In this document: positions 121 to 14,551 of the stretch, piece after piece | Layout: each line of letters begins with the position of its first letter | Numbering within the stretch: position 1 is the stretch's first letter | Assembly: GCA_005191425.1 (NCBI GenBank) | Contig: SUPR01000084.1 | Location: 1-15,047 of the forward strand | Length of the DNA: 15,047 nucleotides | Source of the DNA: Candidatus Helarchaeota ASGARD archaeon Hel_GB_B | GTDB lineage: Archaea; Asgardarchaeota; Lokiarchaeia; Helarchaeales; HEL-GB-B | Direction of reading: 5' to 3' | Program-made: the position numbers and the translations under genes | The notes under the pieces: model-generated | What the model was told of the DNA's origin: nothing | Databases searched by the model: none | The model's input: only the letters and a program-made list of their open reading frames with translations

Positions 121-2127
121 ATGGAAGATTATAATATGACTCAAGCAGAAAAAGCCGCAAAAAGTGGTCTAAAAACAGAAGAAACTGAGGAACCAAGGAT
201 CGGTGTATTTGTATGTCGATGAGGTATTAATATTGCTGGCGTAATTGATGTCCCCGAATGCGTTAAATATGCTAAAACACTTCCTAATGTAGTATGCTCC
301 GAAGAATACCTTTCCATGTGCACAGAACCTGGTGCAGCATTTATTGCTGAAAAAATAAAAGAAAACAATTTAAATCGGGTTATTGTTGCCGCTTGTACAC
401 CTCGAACCCATGAACCAGTATTTCATTCGGTCTTAAAGGACGCCGGATTACAACCTAGATATCTTGAATTTACTAATATTAGAGAACACGTAGCATTTGT
501 CCACATGAATGAACCTGAACTTGCAACTGAACAAGCCAAAGAATTACTTAAGGCAGCAGCTAAACGAGCTGCTATATTAGAACCCGTACCTACTAAGATC
601 GTGAACATTACTCCAACAGTGCTAATAGTTGGTGGTGGTGTTGCCGGTCTCAGCGCAGCTTTAGATATTGCAAATACTGGATATGATGTCTACATCGTAG
701 AAAAAGAAACAACAATCGGTGGTAAAATGGCAATGATGGACCGGGTATTCCCCACTGATGACTGTAGTATATGAATTCTCGGCCCAAAAATGCTTGAAGC
801 TGCTAGACATCCAAAAATTCACATTATATCCCATGCTGAAGTTAAAAGTGCTTCGGGTTTTATCGGTAATTTCAAAATAATTGTTGAGAAAAAACCAAGA
901 TATATAAAAGAGACCGGACCAAATGCATGTACCGGATGTGGCGCTTGCAGAGATGTTTGTCCAATATCATATCCAAACTGGTTTAACCAAGGCTTCTCAC
1001 CACGAAAAGCAATTGACCTTGCCTTTGCTCAAGCTGTCCCAACAATTTATGATATCAATATTGACAAGTGCATTAAATGCTATAATTGTGTTGATGCTTG
1101 TGATGTGAATTCTATCGATTTTTCACAAGAACCTGAAGAAATTGAACTCGATATTGGTCTAATAATTGTTGCAACAGGTTGGGACATCTATACAAGCGAC
1201 CAATATGGTTATGGTGAATATAAAAATGTCATAAATCAATTGGAATTGGAACGATTATTGGCTCCTAATGGTCCTACTGGCAGTCATGTAATCCGTCCTT
1301 CGGATAATAAAACACCTAGAAGAGTAGTAATGATCCAATGCGTAGGTTCTAGAGATTGCCACCATAATGCATATTGTTCAGCAGTATGTTGCTTGGTCGC
1401 AATGAAAAATGCTAAATTACTAAAAGCTGAATATCCAGACATTGAAGTTGCTATCTGTTTTATCGATATCAGAGCTGCAGGAAAAGATTATGAAGAATAT
1501 TATAGAAGAGCTAGAGAATCCGGTATTTCGTTCATAAAAGGCAAAGTAGCAAGAGTAGAAGAAGACCCTATTACAAAAAATCTCCAATGTTTGGTCGAAG
1601 ATATGTCAGGTAATAGACATTTAGTATTAGAAGCAGATTTGGTCGTACTATCGTCTGCAGCAGTACCTACTCGGGGAACTGAAAAAGTCTCTGAAACATT
1701 AAAATTAGAACGCGGATCTGATGGGTTTTTCAGAGAATTTCATGCGCGACTTGATCCAATTTCAACAAAAGTCCCAGGTATATTTATTGCAGGATTTGCA
1801 CAAGGACCAAAAGCAATTGAATTCTCAGTATCTCAAGGTAAAGGCGCTGCAGCATCAGCAATTCAACTTCTAAAAAAAGGCGAATACGTAATTGAACTTA
1901 TCAGGGCTGTTGTCGATTTAGATCGGTGTTCTAAATGTGGCGAATGTATTGCAATATGTCCCTATAATGCAATATCATTTAATAGCGAAGGAAATATTGA
2001 AGTAAGTGATGTAGCTTGTCGTGGCTGTGGTGCTTGCGCAGCGATATGCCGGTCCAATAGTATAACCTTACGATATTATCGAGATATCCAATTTGAAGAA
2101 TACATTGACGCACTTCTTGCGGTTTAA
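121..2127 (+). CDS. hdrA: Heterodisulfide reductase subunit A-like flavoprotein, predicted selenoprotein with two Sec (about 668 aa; alternative start ATG 136)
   Basis: ATG 121, track ORF 316-774 and track ORF 790-2127 are all in one frame, broken only by TGA 220-222 and TGA 772-774. Read-through gives RIGVFVCR(U)GINIAG, AACTPRTHE, the FAD motif GGGVAGLSAA, FPTDDCSI(U)ILGPKM, QCVGSRD..YCSAVCC and four CxxCxxCxxxC ferredoxin motifs. The real stop is TAA 2125-2127. Confidence 0.95.
220..222 (+). other. In-frame UGA, predicted selenocysteine (codon 34 of hdrA)
   Basis: Occupies the second Cys of the HdrA N-terminal VFVCxCGxNIAG motif; HdrA-like sequence continues on both sides in the same frame. 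Confidence 0.88.
772..774 (+). other. In-frame UGA, predicted selenocysteine (codon 218 of hdrA)
   Basis: FPTDDCSI*ILGPKM matches the FPTxDCxxC/U motif, the known Sec site of Methanococcales HdrA. Confidence 0.93.
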
Positions 2128-2147
2128 ATATGAAAAATGTTCTATAC

Positions 2148-2217
2148 GCGAATCTGGATGACCTTATATAAAAAAATCAAATTATATAAGGGACGCTGTT
2201 TGCAAAACAGGATTCGT
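2148..2217 (+). promoter_or_regulatory. SECIS element 1 (eukaryote-like AUGA/GA core, three-way junction) in the hdrA 3' UTR
   Basis: ATGA 2158-2161. Perfect 10-bp helix CCTTATATAA 2162-2171 / TTATATAAGG 2182-2191 with A-rich loop AAAAATCAAA. GA 2192-2193. Side hairpin CTGTT-TGCAA-AACAG 2196-2210. Basal helix CGAATC 2149-2154 / GATTCG 2211-2216. Confidence 0.88.
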
Positions 2218-2244
2218 ATTTAAAAAATATCTAAGATGATTAAA

Positions 2245-2667
2245 ATGGCAGAATTCTTGCCAAAAATAGCTGCATTCCTCTGTAATAAATGAGGTTACGG
2301 CGCACTTGATATGGCGGGCACAATTAGGGCACAATATCCCGCATCATTCCGGACTGTCCGAGTTACATGTACTGGACGAGTATCAGCAGACCTAATATTT
2401 CGTGCCTTACGCAAAGGTGCTGATGGCGTTGCCGTAATCGGATGATATGAAGGGGAATGCGATTTCGAAAGTGGAAACCTATCTGCTAAAAGACAGGTAG
2501 AAATGGTCCAAATAATCTTGGAGTCCATTGGTATAAGTCCTGAACGTGTAATAATGGACCATTGCTCCTCTGCTGAAGGCGCTAAAATAGCCGAGATTGC
2601 ACGCAAAATGACTGCTAAGTTAAAAGAATTGGGACCAAGTCCACTTAAAATTTCAGAATCCGAATAA
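2245..2667 (+). CDS. mvhD: MvhD/VhuD/FlxD-family [2Fe-2S] subunit, predicted selenoprotein with two Sec (140 aa); absent from the ORF track
   Basis: Manual translation from ATG 2245: MAEFLPKIAAFLCNK(U)GYGALDMAG...RVTCTGRV...GADGVAVIG(U)YEGECDFESGN...ELGPSPLKISESE, stop TAA 2665-2667. Matches the MvhD pattern FxCxx(C/U)xY, RVxCxGRV, GADGVxxxG(C/U)xxGxC. An in-frame ATG at 2236 is an alternative start. Confidence 0.95.
2290..2292 (+). other. In-frame UGA, predicted selenocysteine (codon 16 of mvhD)
   Basis: FLCNK*GYG aligns with the MvhD FxCxWCxY motif and the methanococcal VhuD Sec site. Confidence 0.92.
2443..2445 (+). other. In-frame UGA, predicted selenocysteine (codon 67 of mvhD)
   Basis: GADGVAVIG*YEGEC aligns with GADGVxxxGCxxGxC. 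Confidence 0.92.
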
Positions 2668-2730
2668 GAATGACCCCTATGGAAAAAGTTTATGCATAGG
2701 GTGATGTCCTACGCAATAGGATAATTCGGA
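2659..2730 (+). promoter_or_regulatory. SECIS element 2 (eukaryote-like AUGA/GA core, three-way junction) at the mvhD 3' end
   Basis: ATGA 2670-2673. C/T mismatch, then helix CCCTATG 2675-2681 / CATAGGG 2695-2701 with A-rich loop GAAAAAGTTTATG. GA 2703-2704. Side hairpin TCCTA-CGCAA-TAGGA 2707-2721. Basal helix TCCGAAT 2659-2665 / ATTCGGA 2724-2730. Confidence 0.85.
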
Positions 2731-2763
2731 ATAAATTAAATAAAAAATAAATGAGGCATTCCA

Positions 2764-3930
2764 ATGGAATTAGAAAAAACATATGATATTGGTACCAGCA
2801 AAAATATAATGGAATTAATGAAATTATTCCTTAAAGCCAATATTGTCGAGTCTGTCTTATGGTTCGATACAAAAAAGACTCGGTTCGACCTTGCACCCAA
2901 AGAAATAACAAACCCCGATGACCTAACCCAGGATTTACTTGGACAATATTGTCTCTATAATTATGATAGACTCGATACTACCGCTAATTTCGTGAGAAAA
3001 AAGCTGGATGGCGCTAAAAATAAAAAAATAGCTGTTATTGCTAAGCCATGTGATATTAGAGCATTCATCGAACTTTCAAAAGTTAGACAAGTTAATCTTG
3101 ATAATATTTTAATTGTTGGAATAGAATGCCCTGAAACTATAAATAAAAAAGTGTTGATTAAAACACTTGAAAAAGAAGGAATTGATACTGAAAAGATTGT
3201 CGGTGAATCTCGAATATCTGTCGAACAAATCTCATTTAAACTTGAAACTGGTAATAAAATCATTGATATTAAAGATGGACTTGTATATCTTAATTGCACT
3301 AGATGCCCAAGAAAAATTTCAATGAAATCTGATTTAAATATTGGAGAACGAGGCCAAGATAAATGGATTGTCCAAATTGTATCAGAAAAAGGTAAAAAAG
3401 CTATTGATAGTGTCGCTACAGACAATTTAATCTCAGGAATTTCGGAAGGTGAAAATGAATTAGTAAATAAATTAATCGACATCTCTCAACAAAATAGGGC
3501 AGCTGATTTTGAGAAGCTTGATGCAATGACAAATAAAGAAAGGTTTAAATTATTCTACGACACCTTCTCTAAATGTAGAAAATGTGCCAGTTGTATTAAT
3601 GTTTGTCCGGTTTGTTTCTGTCATGATTGTGACTTACAGCGTAAAACTAAACTTGAGAGAGCTGATAAAAAAGCAGGTGTCGAAAACTGGGAAAAAATGG
3701 ATCGCATCCTTTATATTCTAACAAAAATGGGCCATATGTGTGACTCATGTATTGAATGCGGTAAATGTTCTCAAGTTTGTCCTGTTGGTATACCATCAGC
3801 TGATACTTACCGATATATTAATGATAAAATTCAGAAAAAATATGGCTATGTCGCAGGTAATAGCGTGGACGAAATGTCTCCAAGGTCTGGAATTGAAATC
3901 AAAAAATTGCTAGAAGCCTTAAATAAATAA
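2764..3930 (+). CDS. FdhB/FrhB-family iron-sulfur protein (formate dehydrogenase beta subunit-like, divergent)
   Basis: KIAVIAKPCDIRAFIELSKVRQVNLDNILIVGIEC resembles methanogen FdhB (KPCD..ELAK..QxNLDNxxxIGLNC). Also NCTRC and the C-terminal cluster motifs CRKCASCINVCPVCFCHDC and CDSCIECGKCSQVCP. GAGG ribosome-binding site 7 nt upstream. Confidence 0.8.
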   Translation: MELEKTYDIGTSKNIMELMKLFLKANIVESVLWFDTKKTRFDLAPKEITNPDDLTQDLLGQYCLYNYDRLDTTANFVRKKLDGAKNKKIAVIAKPCDIRAFIELSKVRQVNLDNILIVGIECPETINKKVLIKTLEKEGIDTEKIVGESRISVEQISFKLETGNKIIDIKDGLVYLNCTRCPRKISMKSDLNIGERGQDKWIVQIVSEKGKKAIDSVATDNLISGISEGENELVNKLIDISQQNRAADFEKLDAMTNKERFKLFYDTFSKCRKCASCINVCPVCFCHDCDLQRKTKLERADKKAGVENWEKMDRILYILTKMGHMCDSCIECGKCSQVCPVGIPSADTYRYINDKIQKKYGYVAGNSVDEMSPRSGIEIKKLLEALNK

Positions 3931-4073: not shown

Positions 4074-5531
4074 TTAAGGTTTGTCTATTTTAAGAGTGGG
4101 GAATAAAATTACATCTTTTAAAGACTCTGAATTAGTGATTATCGCAGTTATACGGTCTATTCCTAAACCAAGCCCAGAGTTGGGTGGCATACCATACTCC
4201 ATACATTCGATATAATCTTTTTCCATCATCATTGTCTCATCATCACCTTTTTCCCGATACTTTTGTTGTTGTATCATTCGTTGGTATTGTTCTAAAGGGT
4301 CTATAAGTTCTGAATAGGCTTTTACAATTTCCCATGTATTGACTACAACCTGAAACATGTTAAGAATTTCTGGGTTTTCATCATTTCTTCGAGCTAATGG
4401 GACCAATTCGGATGGATGATAAGTAAGAAATGTGGGTTGAATTAATTTTGGTCTTACGGTTTTCTTATAAAGGCCATCTATTAATGCAGGATGTGATTTA
4501 TATTCATCTGGATTTATTTCTGGTTTATATTTCCTGATAGCATCAGCAAGTTCATCATATGTCTTATATTTTCTTAGGTCTATTTTTGTTTCTTTTTTAA
4601 TTGCATCAATATATGAAATCTCTGGCCAATTTCCACCAAAATCCAGAGTAATACCTCTATATTCAATTTTTGTTGTGTTCAGAAACTTCAAAAGAATTGA
4701 TTGGATAAGCTCTTGTATGAATTTCATATTATCCCGAAAATTCCAATAAGCAGCATACCATTCTAACATAGTAAATTCTGGTAGATGAGAAGGATCTACA
4801 TCTTCATTGCGGAAATTCCTAGAAAGCTCATATACTCGTTCAAACCCACCTACTACTAATCGCTTCAAATATGTTTCTGGAGAAATACGAAGATAAAGAT
4901 TACTCTTAAGAAAATTATGGTATGTAATAAATGGACGGGCAGCGGCTCCAGAAGCTGCTGCTTGAAGGATTGGCGTTTCAACTTCTATAAAATCGTGTTC
5001 ATCAAGAAATTTTCTTATATAACTAATAATTTTTGACCTTAAAATAAAACGCTTCCTAGTATTCTCATTTGTAATAAGGTCTAAATATCTTTGGCGATAA
5101 CATAATTCTTTATCTTGTAGTCCATGCCACTTTTCTGGTAATCCTCTAAGGCTTTTCGATAAAAATGTAATGCTTTTTGAACCTATAGTCCGTTCGCCTC
5201 TTTTTGTAGTCCATAGTTCACCTTCAATACCTATAAAATCTCCTATGTCTACTAATGTTTTTACCATTTTAAATTGCTCTTCAGATAATTTGTTTTCTTG
5301 AAAACTTACTTGAGCTCTACCTGATCTGTCAAATAAATGTGCAAAAATTAATTTTCCAAAACTTCTTTTTGTTATCATTCTGCCTGCAACTCGAACTGGC
5401 TCTCCATCCGGCAGCGCTATTGCTTCTAATAATGTATGACTACATTTAAATTTATCTGCATAAGGAATTATTCCTAAATCTCTAAGCTTCTTCAACTTTT
5501 CTATTCGTGCCCTGCGTATATCTTCACTCAT
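4074..5531 (-). CDS. lysS: Lysine--tRNA ligase, class II (LysRS2)
   Basis: N-terminal OB-fold (VRVAGRMITKRSFGKLIFAHL), FIEVETPIL (motif 1), FERVYELSRNFRNE (motif 2), YGMPPNSGLGLGIDR (motif 3), terminal DVILFP. Confidence 0.95.
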   Translation of the reverse strand: MSEDIRRARIEKLKKLRDLGIIPYADKFKCSHTLLEAIALPDGEPVRVAGRMITKRSFGKLIFAHLFDRSGRAQVSFQENKLSEEQFKMVKTLVDIGDFIGIEGELWTTKRGERTIGSKSITFLSKSLRGLPEKWHGLQDKELCYRQRYLDLITNENTRKRFILRSKIISYIRKFLDEHDFIEVETPILQAAASGAAARPFITYHNFLKSNLYLRISPETYLKRLVVGGFERVYELSRNFRNEDVDPSHLPEFTMLEWYAAYWNFRDNMKFIQELIQSILLKFLNTTKIEYRGITLDFGGNWPEISYIDAIKKETKIDLRKYKTYDELADAIRKYKPEINPDEYKSHPALIDGLYKKTVRPKLIQPTFLTYHPSELVPLARRNDENPEILNMFQVVVNTWEIVKAYSELIDPLEQYQRMIQQQKYREKGDDETMMMEKDYIECMEYGMPPNSGLGLGIDRITAIITNSESLKDVILFPTLKIDKP

Positions 5532-5913: not shown

Positions 5914-6237
5914 TTACTCTACCTTTAAAATTTCTTGAATTAAATCTTCAATTAAATCTGGAATAACTTCCTCGGAAATTTTAAGATTTTGCTTCTTAAC
6001 TTCTAAATCTTTTCTTAAAGCTTGCTCTTTTTGTCTCACCAATTCTAGTGTCTCTTCTTCCAATTTTTTGATCTCTTTTTTCGCATTTTCAATCTCTTTT
6101 ATCCTTAATTTCTCAATACTTTGTTTTACATTTCTAAGTAACTCTTCTGAATCTACTTTTGCTTTCTCAATTATTTTATTTCCATCTTTTTCTATTTCTT
6201 GAATAATTTCAAGTAATTCCTTCATTCTAACCTTCAC
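5914..6237 (-). CDS. atpH: A/V-type ATP synthase subunit H (peripheral stalk, G-like); start GTG 6237 or ATG 6225
   Basis: 107 aa, highly charged, coiled-coil-like (LLEIIQEIEKDGNKIIEKAK). Overlaps the subunit C stop and is the only subunit otherwise missing from the cluster. Confidence 0.7.
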   Translation of the reverse strand: MKVRMKELLEIIQEIEKDGNKIIEKAKVDSEELLRNVKQSIEKLRIKEIENAKKEIKKLEEETLELVRQKEQALRKDLEVKKQNLKISEEVIPDLIEDLIQEILKVE

Positions 6238-7310
6238 TCATTTAAAATCAAATTATTTTTTATATCACTAGGAGTCATTTTTAAATTAATTCCATTTAAA
6301 ATAATTATTAAATTATTTATTTCATATTCTGTAAGTTTTAAAACGGCTAATGGATAACTAATATTATATAATCGTAATTTGGATAAAGATAAAGAATTAA
6401 CAAAAAATTTATACTTTTTTCTCATCAAAATGTAATACAATTTATCTAATGTGTCTACTTCATTAATATTGAGATTGGATTTAAAAATTTTATTAATAAT
6501 TCCTAGATCTCTGTTTATATCATAAGATTTTGAGTTTATTAAATTCTCAAGAAGTATTTCATTAGTAATATTCGGGTCATAAATCATAAATCTGTAAATT
6601 TGGTGGGCTTTTAAATTTAATTTTTTTGTTCTGAAGATAGCAAGAACATTATAACCATTAATTATTAATTTTAGATAATTAAGCACGAAATTTTTGTCAT
6701 AATTATTTTTTAAATTCTTACATTCTATTATTAGATTTTTAAAATAATCTAAATCCAAGAATACATCAAACATATAAATTGATTTACTTTCTTCATAGAT
6801 ATGGAAAGCCTGTTGTAAATCATTCTTATAATTACCAAATGTAATTGAATTGATTAAATCCAATAAACTGCTCGCATGCATTAAACGTTCAAAATTTTTT
6901 TCATGATTAAGGAATTTTTCTATTGAATGGTGTATTAATGAATCAATTTCTGAATAAGAATAATTTAGAATTTTAGCTCTATATAATTTCTTTAAATTGT
7001 CCATCTCAAATTTTAAAAATTCTTGATAAATATAGTTTGATATAAATAATGGAGATGATTTTAAGAATTTTATATAAAGAGAAATGAGATATTCCTTTAA
7101 AACAAATTCAATTGATTCAATACTTTCAGGTTTATAATACTCAATAAGATTATTGTATTTTAAATCTTTAAGTTCATTTACAAACTCTTCTATAGATGAT
7201 AATTTTGTTAATGAAACTAATTTTTCTTGCTTTAATAAACGTGGCTTTTCGGCGCTTACTATTGGAATTAAATATTCTATATCCATTTCTCTATTTTTTA
7301 AATGGATCAT
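6234..7310 (-). CDS. atpC: A/V-type ATP synthase subunit C (d-like)
   Basis: 358 aa; EMDNLKKLYRAK and C-terminal YEINNLIIILNG resemble the family motifs DxxNIKxxLRAK and ExEIxNLRxI. GGAGG site 6 nt upstream. Ends in TGA. Confidence 0.8.
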   Translation of the reverse strand: MIHLKNREMDIEYLIPIVSAEKPRLLKQEKLVSLTKLSSIEEFVNELKDLKYNNLIEYYKPESIESIEFVLKEYLISLYIKFLKSSPLFISNYIYQEFLKFEMDNLKKLYRAKILNYSYSEIDSLIHHSIEKFLNHEKNFERLMHASSLLDLINSITFGNYKNDLQQAFHIYEESKSIYMFDVFLDLDYFKNLIIECKNLKNNYDKNFVLNYLKLIINGYNVLAIFRTKKLNLKAHQIYRFMIYDPNITNEILLENLINSKSYDINRDLGIINKIFKSNLNINEVDTLDKLYYILMRKKYKFFVNSLSLSKLRLYNISYPLAVLKLTEYEINNLIIILNGINLKMTPSDIKNNLILNE

Positions 7311-9678: not shown

Positions 9679-10131
9679 TTAATTATGTTGTAATACAAAT
9701 ACAGGACATTTAGCAAATTCAATTATTTGATTAGCAACACTTGCCAATCTAATTGATTCGGAACCAGATCTTATTCTGTGAGATATACATATAAGGTCTA
9801 TTTGAAATTCTATTATGAATTTTAAGATTTCGTCAACAATTTTACCATTTCTTATAAATGTTTTAATAGATTTATTATAAGATTCTGCGATTTTTTTAAT
9901 TTTGAGAATTGCTCGTTCTCCTTCTTCTGTATATACCTTTTGAAGATCTTTGATTGGTTTTTCTTGTGAAATATGTAATTTATCAATTCTATCTTCTCTA
10001 ATTACATATAAGCAATAAAGTTCCGAGTTATTTTGAACTCCAATCTGAATTCCATAATCTGCTACATTAAATGAATTTTTACTTCCATCAGTTAAGATTA
10101 GAATTCTTTTAAAAATTTGAATTTTATTCAC
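9679..10131 (-). CDS. Universal stress protein (UspA family)
   Basis: FKRILILTDGSKNS, LYVI, GKIVDEILK...IDLICI and SVANQIIEFAKCPVFVL follow the USP pattern from end to end. The GTG start overlaps the end of atpD by 8 nt. Confidence 0.9.
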   Translation of the reverse strand: MNKIQIFKRILILTDGSKNSFNVADYGIQIGVQNNSELYCLYVIREDRIDKLHISQEKPIKDLQKVYTEEGERAILKIKKIAESYNKSIKTFIRNGKIVDEILKFIIEFQIDLICISHRIRSGSESIRLASVANQIIEFAKCPVFVLQHN

Positions 10132-10765
10132 GCCCCAATTTATTTTTTAAAATTTTATGGATTGCCATTTCATATCGTTCTTTTTCTTCAAGAACGAATT
10201 GAATATAATTTATTGTTTCTCGATAATTTGGAATGAAAAGATTTTCAAGAGCACTAATTTTTTTTCGAGTTTTTCTCATTTCTCTTGCAATTCTAAATAA
10301 TACATTGTTACTAATTGCAAAAACTAATAAATATTTTAAGGTATTTATTAATGCATTTCGCGTTTTTTCTAATAGGGGTGAAGTATCAACCAATCCATAA
10401 TCTAGACTTAATTTAAGGTTTGAATCTTCAGGAAATATAATATCAATTAAAGTTATACCAAATTTACTATATTTTTTGAGGTCATAATTAATTTCTGATT
10501 TGCAAAATGGTGCAATTAACTCTATATTTTGTTTTCCATTTGTAATGAATGTTTTTTTAAGAAGTTCGTAAGATTCGTTTAATGCACTTTCAAGATTTTC
10601 ATATTCTCGTTGATAATGTAAAAGTAGACTATCAATTATTTTTTTAAGTCCTTCATATTTATCTTCTAAAACATCATGACTGGTAATTAAAATTTTTAGT
10701 CTGTTTTTAAATTTAATTTGGTTCTGTTTATTGACAGCTACTTTAATAATTGTCATTCTAATCAC
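10124..10765 (-). CDS. atpD: A/V-type ATP synthase subunit D (central rotor), divergent; probable true start ATG 10756
   Basis: Position directly after atpB, about 210 aa. C-terminal RKTRKKISALENLFIP...YIQFVLEEKERYE matches KTxRRVNALExxxIP...LEExER. The GTG at 10765 lies inside the GGAGTG ribosome-binding site. Confidence 0.88.
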   Translation of the reverse strand: MIRMTIIKVAVNKQNQIKFKNRLKILITSHDVLEDKYEGLKKIIDSLLLHYQREYENLESALNESYELLKKTFITNGKQNIELIAPFCKSEINYDLKKYSKFGITLIDIIFPEDSNLKLSLDYGLVDTSPLLEKTRNALINTLKYLLVFAISNNVLFRIAREMRKTRKKISALENLFIPNYRETINYIQFVLEEKERYEMAIHKILKNKLGRE

Positions 10766-13918: not shown

Positions 13919-14551
13919 TCACGCGCCTTCTAAATATTTATTGATTATATTTCTCAGAATATCTCTCTTTTTATCGATAATTTCTTTTAATGTATGTGTA
14001 ATTTGATAATTTTTATCCGGAACTATTATAATAAAGCCTCCAATATCTTCACTTGAAAGCTTATCATTAGAAATAGTTATTTGAACATTCTTATTATTCA
14101 ATTTTGATATTATTTCGTTAATATTAATTAGAGAAGTATCATTATCGGTCAAAATTAATTGAATTTTAGGTTCATTTATATAATCTATTACTTTTATTAA
14201 TGATGAAATTAAAAAACTTTTATACCGTTCTGTTTTTATTACTTCTTGTAATTTATTTTCTAAAATATTAAAAATATTTTGAATTATTTTCTCCTTTTCT
14301 CTGATTAATTCTCTATAAGTTGACATTTGGACATTTATAATTCTATTTTCCCCTAATTTCTGAATTCGTTCCTTATTTTTTTTGTACAATTCTTGAATTT
14401 CCTTCAGAATCTCATTTTTTGAATTTTTTAAAATTAATTTTGATTTCTCTTTCGCTTCATTAATTATTTTCTCTGCTTGATTTTTTGCACTTTCGAGAAT
14501 TTCTTCTGAAAGATTCTCGATCTCATCATGAAGTCTTTTATTTTTTTGCAT
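13919..14551 (-). CDS. atpE: A/V-type ATP synthase subunit E
   Basis: N-terminal coiled coil (EEILESAKNQAEKIINEAKEK), C-terminal IGGFIII..D motif, 210 aa, operon context. Ends in TGA. Confidence 0.88.
   Translation of the reverse strand: MQKNKRLHDEIENLSEEILESAKNQAEKIINEAKEKSKLILKNSKNEILKEIQELYKKNKERIQKLGENRIINVQMSTYRELIREKEKIIQNIFNILENKLQEVIKTERYKSFLISSLIKVIDYINEPKIQLILTDNDTSLININEIISKLNNKNVQITISNDKLSSEDIGGFIIIVPDKNYQITHTLKEIIDKKRDILRNIINKYLEGA

Follow-up and report, generated by a model that had tools for sequence, protein, structure and literature searches.

Four in-frame UGA codons and a SECIS element per gene in an hdrA-mvhD tandem of a Helarchaeota archaeon

Standard gene calling breaks up both genes of an hdrA-mvhD pair in the stretch of Candidatus Helarchaeota DNA analyzed here (15,047 nucleotides; "the window"). 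Under translation table 11, hdrA appears as two open reading frames, 316-774 and 790-2127, with its N-terminus lost, and no plus-strand frame of at least 60 amino acids covers mvhD. These could be decayed genes or intact genes with recoded codons. We are highly confident that hdrA and mvhD/vhuD of this Helarchaeales-like Asgard archaeon are intact and encode selenoproteins of an electron-bifurcation module, in which four UGA codons are read as selenocysteine (Sec, U) by means of one SECIS element per gene.

Reading frames and cysteine columns

When TGA is translated as U, both genes are open on the plus strand: hdrA (121-2127) over 668 codons and mvhD/vhuD (2236-2667) over 143 codons, each ending in TAA and separated by a spacer of 108 nt. 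In-frame TGAs occur at just four places: 220-222 and 772-774 in hdrA, and 2290-2292 and 2443-2445 in mvhD. The initial annotation had placed these codons on conserved cysteine positions of genes ending in TAA, and had held that automated calling splits hdrA, drops its N-terminus and misses mvhD; translation, homologue columns and the table 11 frames bear this out.

Translation of hdrA may start at ATG 121 or ATG 136. In a phmmer search against the PDB, its product matched 9sfi_A (1.8e-209) and 5odc_A (2e-201) over residues 23-666, that is, homology to structurally characterized HdrA over the full length. Pfam matches comprise Fer4 families at 267-330 and 596-649 and FAD/Pyr_redox at 166-205, and by homology the protein is an HdrA-type flavoprotein built from an N-terminal cluster domain, an FAD domain like that of thioredoxin reductase and two ferredoxin domains. 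The UGA at 220-222 corresponds to Sec34 in an N-terminal C-x-U-G motif (VFVCRUG), a column that is Cys in solved HdrA structures. The UGA at 772-774 corresponds to Sec218 in the canonical DDCxxU site (DDCSIUILGPK), which is X (Sec) in the Methanococcus maripaludis chain 9sfi_A, Cys197 in Methanothermococcus thermolithotrophicus and Cys205 in Methanothermobacter marburgensis. The N-terminal CxU had been proposed as a Sec beyond the one known from methanococcal HdrA, and 9sfi_A indeed has Cys there.

The mvhD product belongs to the FlpD family (PF02662; 153.9 bits, 2.5e-45, against a gathering cut-off of 22.3) and matches MvhD/VhuD chains in the PDB at 1e-37 to 3e-34. Its true start is probably ATG 2245 (MAEFLPK): the PDB alignment begins at residue 4, and the orthologue in the relative L051 opens with MAEF right after a TAA. 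A TATA-like sequence, TTTAAAAAATAT, lies about 10 nt upstream of the start region. The UGA at 2290-2292 gives Sec19 in C-x-x-U-G (FLCNKUGYG) and the UGA at 2443-2445 gives Sec70 in G-U-x4-C (VIGUYEGEC), equivalent to Cys16 and Cys67 of M. marburgensis MvhD; both are X in 9sfi_K. Residues C16, U19, C45, U70 and C75 align to C13, C16, C42, C67 and C72 of 9sw2_D and are invariantly C or U across 77-78 relatives. Downstream, at 2764-3930 on the plus strand, lies a gene for an FrhB/FdhB-like iron-sulfur protein (Pfam FrhB_FdhB_C, 7e-15, plus Fer4 families), a possible electron-input partner; this gene order is conserved in L051.

Alignment with the HdrA and MvhD families, which the initial annotation had named as a check, showed Cys or Sec in every homologue examined at all four TGA columns, a match far beyond chance. 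Among close Asgard homologues of HdrA, column 34 is U in 81/83 and C in 2/83, and column 218 is U in 83/83; the N-terminal CxU is thus the rule among the closest Asgard HdrA and not an oddity. In the MvhD proteins encoded downstream in 78 relatives, column 19 is U in all 78 and column 70 in all 77 that have a residue, with one gap. Exactly two Sec occur in 70 of the 83 surveyed HdrA, and no other state is as common in the surveyed relatives as the exact four-Sec pattern. Further HdrA Sec sites found more than once are 67 and 92, both in invariant Cys columns of the N-terminal cluster domain. The genome also carries Cys-only HdrA/MvhD paralogues (contigs C68, C98 and others), which suggests that selenium supply matters.

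SECIS elements and Sec machinery

The spacer behind hdrA contains a three-way junction (2146-2219, plus strand) identified as a SECIS element from sequence, fold, conservation and covariation. It consists of a lower stem (2149-2154/2211-2216), AUGA (2158-2161), a fully paired 9-bp helix (2162-2170/2183-2191) closed by a 12-nt loop, AAAAAAUCAAAU, that starts AAAAAA, then GA (2192-2193) and an accessory hairpin (2196-2210). Its minimum free energy fold has z-scores of -2.98 and -2.74, and the L051 orthologue shows a compensatory A-U to G-C change.

A like three-way junction (2658-2731, plus strand) follows mvhD, recognized by sequence, fold, model match and its counterpart in L051. Its lower stem (2660-2665/2724-2729) extends back into the final codons and stop of mvhD, followed by AUGA (2670-2673), a helix with 7 of 9 positions paired (2674-2682/2694-2702), an 11-nt loop, AAAAAGUUUAU, that starts AAAAA, GA (2703-2704) and an accessory hairpin (2705-2723). 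A covariance model built from the two hdrA elements alone detected it with a score of 31.7 bits (E 5e-6). Because the helix here is mismatched at both ends, the element is weaker than its counterpart in L051, whose 9-bp helix is perfect.

Both elements have the features of lokiSECIS or Asgard type I eSECIS-like structures (AUGA, a helix of about 9 bp, a loop of about 11 nt with an A start, GA, and a place close to the stop), and in place of a single shared element downstream of vhuD there is one SECIS per gene. They are the only SECIS-like matches of the covariance model in the 15-kb window at E<0.5. The other six Sec-type genes for HdrA or MvhD in the genome each have one SECIS-like element; the loci C41 and C26, and also L051, likewise have two elements, one per gene. 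The three-way-junction shape is common to all eight Sec-gene 3' regions of the genome, and 97.8% of cells were paired in the covariation analysis versus 53% in shuffles. An Rfam scan of the window gave no match at E<=1, because Rfam has no Asgard SECIS family. The covariance model replaced hand-written descriptors, which were too permissive in a genome of 29% GC (the three-way-junction version gave 129 matches genome-wide versus 48 on the reversed genome), and a MAFFT alignment of the eight elements was structurally unusable. Two other sites were set aside: a candidate on contig C164, where nothing convincing was seen, and a SECIS-like element on C121 with no convincing gene, the gene being cut by the contig end.

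A search of the genome for Sec machinery, also proposed in the initial annotation, recovered SelB/EFSec (276.2 bits, cut-off 242), SepSecS (379.7 bits) and a Sec-type selD (142.3 bits, cut-off 125) that itself has one in-frame TGA. A PSTK-like gene (contig C9, 22440-23159; 156.3 bits, E 1.2e-45) falls below the TIGR03574 equivalog cut-off of 290.5 (NCBIfam). In the raw genome, RF01852 and ARAGORN found no tRNA-Sec and only tRNA-Cys at 33 bits, because the tRNA-Sec gene (C9, 14937-15126) is interrupted by three putative introns. After splicing in silico at junctions placed by homology only, the sequence is recognized as tRNA-SeC(tca); its acceptor stem has 9 bp and its T stem 4 bp.

Frames, columns, SECIS elements and Sec machinery all support the proposal that the four UGAs are Sec codons of a hidden hdrA-mvhD tandem, and from them we infer that Sec is inserted. 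Each UGA would be decoded by Sec-tRNA(Sec) carried by EFSec, and recoding would be steered by the eukaryote-like SECIS RNA just 3' of each gene's stop. The hdrA element, 30 nt past its stop, would have to reach 1.4-1.9 kb, and the mvhD element, 2 nt past its stop, 0.2-0.4 kb. The two proteins are predicted to supply the mobile-arm portion of a flavin-based electron-bifurcation module of the HdrA-MvhD type. Its selenium sites would be the C-x(1-2)-U-G loops (HdrA 34, MvhD 19), the C-x-x-U pair beside the FAD (HdrA 218) and a [2Fe-2S] ligand position (MvhD 70).

Alternative readings and the selenium sites

There are three other ways to read the locus. Since standard calling breaks both genes, they could be pseudogenes, or the TGAs could be sequencing errors or reflect genome-wide reassignment. 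This we regard as barely credible: the TGAs sit on invariant Cys/Sec columns with similarity running on at both sides. Contigs of the independent metagenome runs X1, X2 and X4 cover the TGA sites with identical letters and list no difference there; the TGT or TGC variants that would speak for an error are lacking among them. (Contig cover is absent at 2557-2800 in all four runs.) TGA also ends 216 of 1368 long open reading frames genome-wide and two genes in the window and is thus a common genuine stop, which argues against global reassignment. A second reading, that the UGAs are decoded in vivo partly or wholly as Cys or another residue, for instance under selenium limitation, could draw on the retained Cys-only paralogues. 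We nevertheless think it very improbable, since the genome maintains a Sec pathway, with a PSTK-like gene, alongside dedicated SECIS elements, and since 81-83 of 83 independent genomes retain UGA and not TGT or TGC.

Somewhat less improbable, though still unlikely, is that the intergenic hairpin at 2146-2219 is no working SECIS but a terminator, a processing site or a decaying relic, with the element after mvhD serving both genes as in Lokiarchaeum. Only one lokiSECIS per hdrA-vhuD pair is reported by Mariotti et al. 2016, and in 73 of 78 relatives the hdrA-mvhD gap is about 13 nt or the genes overlap, so that a second element could not fit. Against this stands that the intergenic structure has every SECIS feature, from AUGA and the perfect 9-bp helix to the A-run loop and GA, and outscores the mvhD element. 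It also persists, with the compensatory change, in L051, whose mvhD is some 0.9 kb distant, and an element is found on all four Sec-type hdrA paralogues, including one (C122) that no mvhD follows. We thus retain the reading with one SECIS per gene.

The initial annotation had further placed all four Sec at Fe-S ligand positions, which holds only in part. MvhD U70 is a [2Fe-2S] ligand by elimination. In recent structures, by contrast, the equivalents of MvhD U19 and HdrA C215/U218 are described as additional, non-ligand cysteines. HdrA U34 can be aligned, though weakly, to the position of the non-ligand Cys16 in MvhD. In M. maripaludis HdrA, Sec197 has been modelled in a selenylsulfide-like feature with a Cys (PMC13518236). 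A ligand role of Cys197 towards the N-terminal cluster of the partner comes from the crystal structure only, in the summary given in PMC9012536. The reviews consulted give no residue numbers for the N-terminal cysteines that ligate HA3.

We tentatively offer a further reading of these sites and of the SECIS shape, which we consider possible but not probable. HdrA Sec34 would be no passive cluster ligand and would instead be the counterpart of MvhD Cys16/Sec19 in the MvhD-like N-terminal domain of HdrA. Sec34, MvhD Sec19 and C215/U218 would then form a selenol/thiol relay between the mobile-arm clusters (MvhD [2Fe-2S], HdrA HA3) and the distant bifurcating FAD. Separately, the per-gene three-way junction with its accessory hairpin could be a docking site for an Asgard SECIS-binding factor. 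Sites 67 and 92 are variably Sec in invariant N-terminal Cys columns, and Asgard enzymes would therefore be a natural test system. If true, an open step of flavin-based bifurcation would be marked by selenium and testable in them.

Comparison with known systems

The initial annotation implied that a four-Sec pair is new. Precedent exists: multi-Sec HdrA (up to four Sec at five positions) followed by a two-Sec VhuD is reported for Lokiarchaeota by Mariotti et al. 2016 (PMC4989117), and such pairs appear in the Asgard-wide selenoproteome catalogue of PMC11227280 (ISME J 2024). Set against these two papers, the four-Sec pattern itself adds nothing; the reading is right and ordinary for the group. 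For annotation, the locus and its three sister loci need rescue, since standard pipelines miscall hdrA and mvhD. With one SECIS per cistron, this lineage shows that Asgard archaea need not rely on a single lokiSECIS shared between the genes, and it provides a natural comparison for the distance over which a SECIS can act.

The Lokiarchaeota tandems share with this one gene order and strand, the canonical HdrA Sec plus extra Sec at conserved Cys, the two-Sec VhuD, and hdrA ends of UAA or UAG. The lokiSECIS shares the eukaryote-like AUGA...GA core, the 9-bp helix, the A-rich loop of about 11 nt and the place near the stop. They differ in that one lokiSECIS after vhuD is reported for both genes and the spacer is "invariably very short", whereas the present pair has a 108-nt spacer and two SECIS, one per gene, an arrangement shared by the three paralogous loci and the nearest relative. 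The closing helix and accessory hairpin seen here are not among the lokiSECIS features in the excerpts of PMC4989117 and PMC11227280.

Methanococcal HdrA and VhuD, about 57% similar to the Asgard pair over their full length, have Sec at the HdrA DDCxxU and at both VhuD sites, just as the initial annotation stated (X in 9sfi_A and 9sfi_K). In their HdrA the N-terminal motif reads C-x-C-G, with Cys where the Asgard protein has Sec; their SECIS is of the archaeal type, whereas the Asgard elements are eukaryote-like. The Asgard host, unlike theirs, is no known methanogen, and hdrB, hdrC and mvhAG are absent from the 15-kb window. The MvhADG-HdrABC complexes of M. thermolithotrophicus and M. marburgensis (5odc, 8rvu, 9sw2) have the same domain order and Cys columns, namely the N-terminal cluster domain, the CxxC pair near the FAD and the five MvhD cysteines. 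Unlike the Asgard pair they are all-cysteine, and at two or three of the four positions their structures have "additional" cysteines in place of fixed cluster ligands (PMC13580544).

Four in-frame UGA codons in hdrA and mvhD

Four in-frame UGA codons of this contig very probably receive selenocysteine (Sec, U) through predicted SECIS-directed insertion, giving the HdrA-MvhD bifurcating module a selenium-rich mobile arm. When TGA is translated as U, two plus-strand frames closed by TAA are read through: hdrA (121-2127, 668 codons) and mvhD (2236-2667, 143 codons). As the initial annotation had seen, hdrA carries TGA at 220-222 (codon 34, VFVCRUG) and 772-774 (codon 218, DDCSIUILGPK), and mvhD at 2290-2292 (codon 19, FLCNKUGYG) and 2443-2445 (codon 70, VIGUYEGEC). 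Its remark that automated callers split hdrA and miss mvhD was also borne out: under the standard code hdrA is broken into two ORFs (316-774; 790-2127), and mvhD is covered by none of at least 60 aa.

HdrA aligns end-to-end with solved HdrA chains (9sfi_A, 1.8e-209; 5odc_A, 2e-201; 8rvu_a, 8.6e-198), and Pfam detects its ferredoxin and FAD domains, as expected. The mvhD product belongs to the FlpD/MvhD family (PF02662, 2.5e-45), with E values of 1e-37 to 3e-32 against solved MvhD/VhuD chains. Because these PDB alignments begin at residue 4, and the mvhD of the nearest relative (locus L051) begins MAEF immediately 3' of a TAA, the true start is probably ATG 2245 (MAEFLPK) rather than ATG 2236, which would make the MvhD Sec numbers 16 and 67, as in M. 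marburgensis. A TATA-like TTTAAAAAATAT precedes mvhD at about 2219-2230. On the same strand 3' of mvhD, both here and in L051, is a gene for an FrhB/FdhB-like iron-sulfur protein (2764-3930), which may be the electron-input partner of the module; hdrBC, mvhAG, fdhA and hydrogenase genes are absent from the 15-kb window. Elsewhere, on the minus strand, a universal-stress-protein gene (9679-10131) lies within an A/V-type ATPase operon, its GTG start overlapping the 3' end of an atpD-like gene (10124-10765) by 8 nt.

Could these codons be ordinary stops or errors for TGT or TGC? TGA closes an atpC-like gene (6234-7310) and an orf (13919-14551) in the window and 216 of 1368 long frames genome-wide, so it is a normal stop here and the four internal codons are special; no other gene of this 29% G+C window contains an in-frame TGA. 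Contigs from three metagenome runs of different studies, one of which may be the source sample, cover 119-628, 611-1208 and 2275-2506 (X1), 728-1260 and 1844-2455 (X2), and 600-774 and 2060-2393 (X4). They differ by 0-1 letters in total, no listed difference falls on a TGA codon, and so they give no sign of TGT or TGC.

The recurrence of the same TGA codons in independent genomes is a stronger argument than the run contigs. In one-genome-per-species collections the HdrA loci nearest to this one belong to Asgard MAGs (an uncultured archaeon, 80% identity; Candidatus Helarchaeota Hel_GB_A, 63%; then many Promethearchaeota, ~55%). We aligned TGA-through HdrA frames of the 80 best loci and the genome's own paralogues (n=83), a sample that leans to Sec-type orthologues because it comprises the best matches of a Sec-type query. 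Position 218 is U in 83/83. In this Sec-type-biased sample position 34 is U in 81/83 and C in two, making the N-terminal CxU the rule in this Asgard clade. Exactly U34 and U218 occur in 70 sequences, three Sec in 11, five in one and one in one. Of the extra Sec, eight are at column 67 and four at column 92, with single cases at 323, 407 and 613. No surveyed sequence has a residue other than C or U in columns 32, 34, 67, 92 or 215/218. In MvhD genes 3' of the surveyed hdrA, position 19 is U in 78/78 and position 70 in 77/77. The depositors' sequence of 9sfi (M. maripaludis) agrees with the proposed Cys/UGA correspondence, with X (Sec) at the HdrA U218 and VhuD U19 and U70 columns and Cys at the U34 column. 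In Promethearchaeota MAG DZ2M.219 the HdrA frame contains TGA at five columns (34, 92, 218, 323 and 407), of which 323 and 407 are ferredoxin-type and thioredoxin-reductase-domain Cys columns.

Four hdrA of the window's genome carry two TGAs each (contigs C167, C122, C26 and C41), as do three mvhD; another mvhD has a single TGA, and Cys-only paralogues are also present. Full-length Cys-only HdrA are encoded at C68:932-2887 and C98:1095-3047, and this coexistence is reminiscent of the Methanococcus vhu/vhc Sec/Cys isoenzyme pairs.

SECIS elements and the Sec machinery

Sequence and fold predict a plus-strand SECIS after each gene. The hdrA element has its AUGA core at 2158-2161, 30 nt past the stop, followed by a perfect 9-bp helix (2162-2170/2183-2191) with a 12-nt loop starting AAAAAA, GA at 2192-2193, an accessory hairpin (2196-2210) and a 6-bp closing helix (2149-2154/2211-2216). 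In the mvhD element the AUGA (2670-2673) lies 2 nt past the stop, seven of nine helix positions pair around the 11-nt loop AAAAAGUUUAU, GA is at 2703-2704 and an accessory hairpin at 2705-2723, and the 6-bp closing helix (2660-2665/2724-2729) overlaps the last mvhD codons. The same three-armed fold, with differing sequences, occurs in the 3' regions of 8/8 Sec-type hdrA/mvhD genes of the genome.

A covariance model trained on just two sequences, the hdrA element here and the orthologous one in L051, found, as its best full-length matches, nine further elements (E 5e-7 to 0.12): seven others of this genome, the one after mvhD in L051, and one where contig C121 ends. The window holds no other match with E <0.8. 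Pairing holds in 97.8% of cells of the resulting alignment, itself fitted to that model; shuffling lowers this to 53% and sliding the partners to no more than 47%, and double changes occur at all 21 pairs. The C121 element (L132:1256-1328, minus strand), a SECIS-like three-way junction scoring 20.1 bits, has a perfect 9-bp helix and loop AAAAAGUUUCAG; the contig ends within the gene upstream of it. A second hairpin and closing helix were found by a crude MFE parse in the vhuD SECIS of 48/67 relatives and are probably general.

Sec machinery is encoded in the assembly, which has 3.54 Mb in 182 contigs and is 93.7% complete: SelB/EFSec (C9:6245-7126, 276 bits, above cut-off), the adjoining SepSecS (C9:7795-8922, 380 bits), a PSTK-like gene (C9:22440-23159, which at 156 bits falls short of the equivalog cut-off) and, at the end of contig C31, a selD fragment containing one in-frame TGA (142 bits). 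A lack of such machinery, which would have told against recoding, is therefore not what the genome shows. Neither Rfam model RF01852 nor ARAGORN detected an unspliced tRNA-Sec in this genome or in that of its congener; 20/31 relatives have one above cut-off, and an nhmmer profile built from these matches C9:14987-15084. A putative intron-interrupted tRNA-Sec gene there (C9:14937-15126, plus strand; L131:238-427) places all but selD on one contig. Its acceptor is the 9-bp pair GGCGUUCUG / CAGAACGCC, then GCCA, and three putative introns, with junctions proposed from homology, lie in the D loop (46 nt), at position 37/38 (24 nt) and in the T loop (27 nt). ARAGORN calls the form spliced in silico tRNA-SeC(tca), its T stem being 4 bp long. 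Intron-rich tRNA genes are already on record in Asgard archaea (PMC11291895).

Sec residues and Fe-S ligands

The initial annotation placed all four Sec at Fe-S ligand positions, which suits only some of them. By alignment offsets, U19 corresponds to MvhD Cys16, a non-ligand. With Cys16 set aside, four of the five conserved MvhD Cys columns remain, and by elimination U70 would be one of the four [2Fe-2S] ligands. HdrA C215/U218 correspond to Cys202/Cys205 of M. marburgensis, and U218 to Cys197 of M. thermolithotrophicus. Structural accounts of this site differ: the Cys202/Cys205 pair binds an unidentified ligand (PMC13580544), density between Sec197 and a Cys was read as a possible selenylsulfide relay (PMC13518236), and a crystal structure, as summarised, has Cys197 completing, as fourth ligand, the N-terminal cluster of the partner protomer (PMC9012536). 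U218 would therefore be a cluster ligand in one state at most.

For U34, the HdrA N-terminal domain has four invariant columns (32, 34, 67 and 92, its only invariant Cys/Sec columns), and the crystal description has it give only some cluster ligands, together with Cys197' (PMC9012536). In a single BLASTP comparison HdrA PRIGVFVC-RCG pairs with MvhD PKIAAFLCNKCG (E 0.009), a faint hint that U34 may sit opposite non-ligand Cys16. The initial reading as UGA recoding stands, and the ligand chemistry was overstated.

One SECIS per cistron and published pairs

Nor is the pair novel, as was first implied, since its kind had been described in 2016 and 2024. Mariotti et al. found multi-Sec HdrA in Lokiarchaeota, with up to four Sec over five positions, and two-Sec VhuD always downstream of HdrA, with the hdrA stop always UAA or UAG (PMC4989117), and a 2024 Asgard survey counted 1439 selenoprotein sequences, HdrA and FrhD/MvhD being the most numerous families (PMC11227280).

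The spacing of the two genes is another matter. The hdrA-mvhD gap is ~13 nt or an overlap in 73/78 relatives, 108 nt here, ~145 and 191 nt at two paralogous loci and 936 nt in the nearest relative, and in these last four cases a SECIS follows each gene. These wide gaps, each with two elements, mark one SECIS per cistron as a trait of this lineage. Between the hdrA SECIS and mvhD of the nearest relative is an AT-rich stretch of ~840 nt (L051:4590-5428), whose sole called ORF of at least 40 aa is a 75-aa minus-strand frame (5178-5405). In a contig of a further run (X3), 845 letters separate window positions 2217 and 2243, an insertion right past the SECIS closing helix. The short gap of the 73/78 relatives agrees with Mariotti et al. 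(PMC4989117), whereas the window pair differs; the ISME paper states that 'almost all share' a SECIS, which leaves room for one per cistron (PMC11227280). One SECIS per cistron is the single point at which this pair departs from published descriptions.
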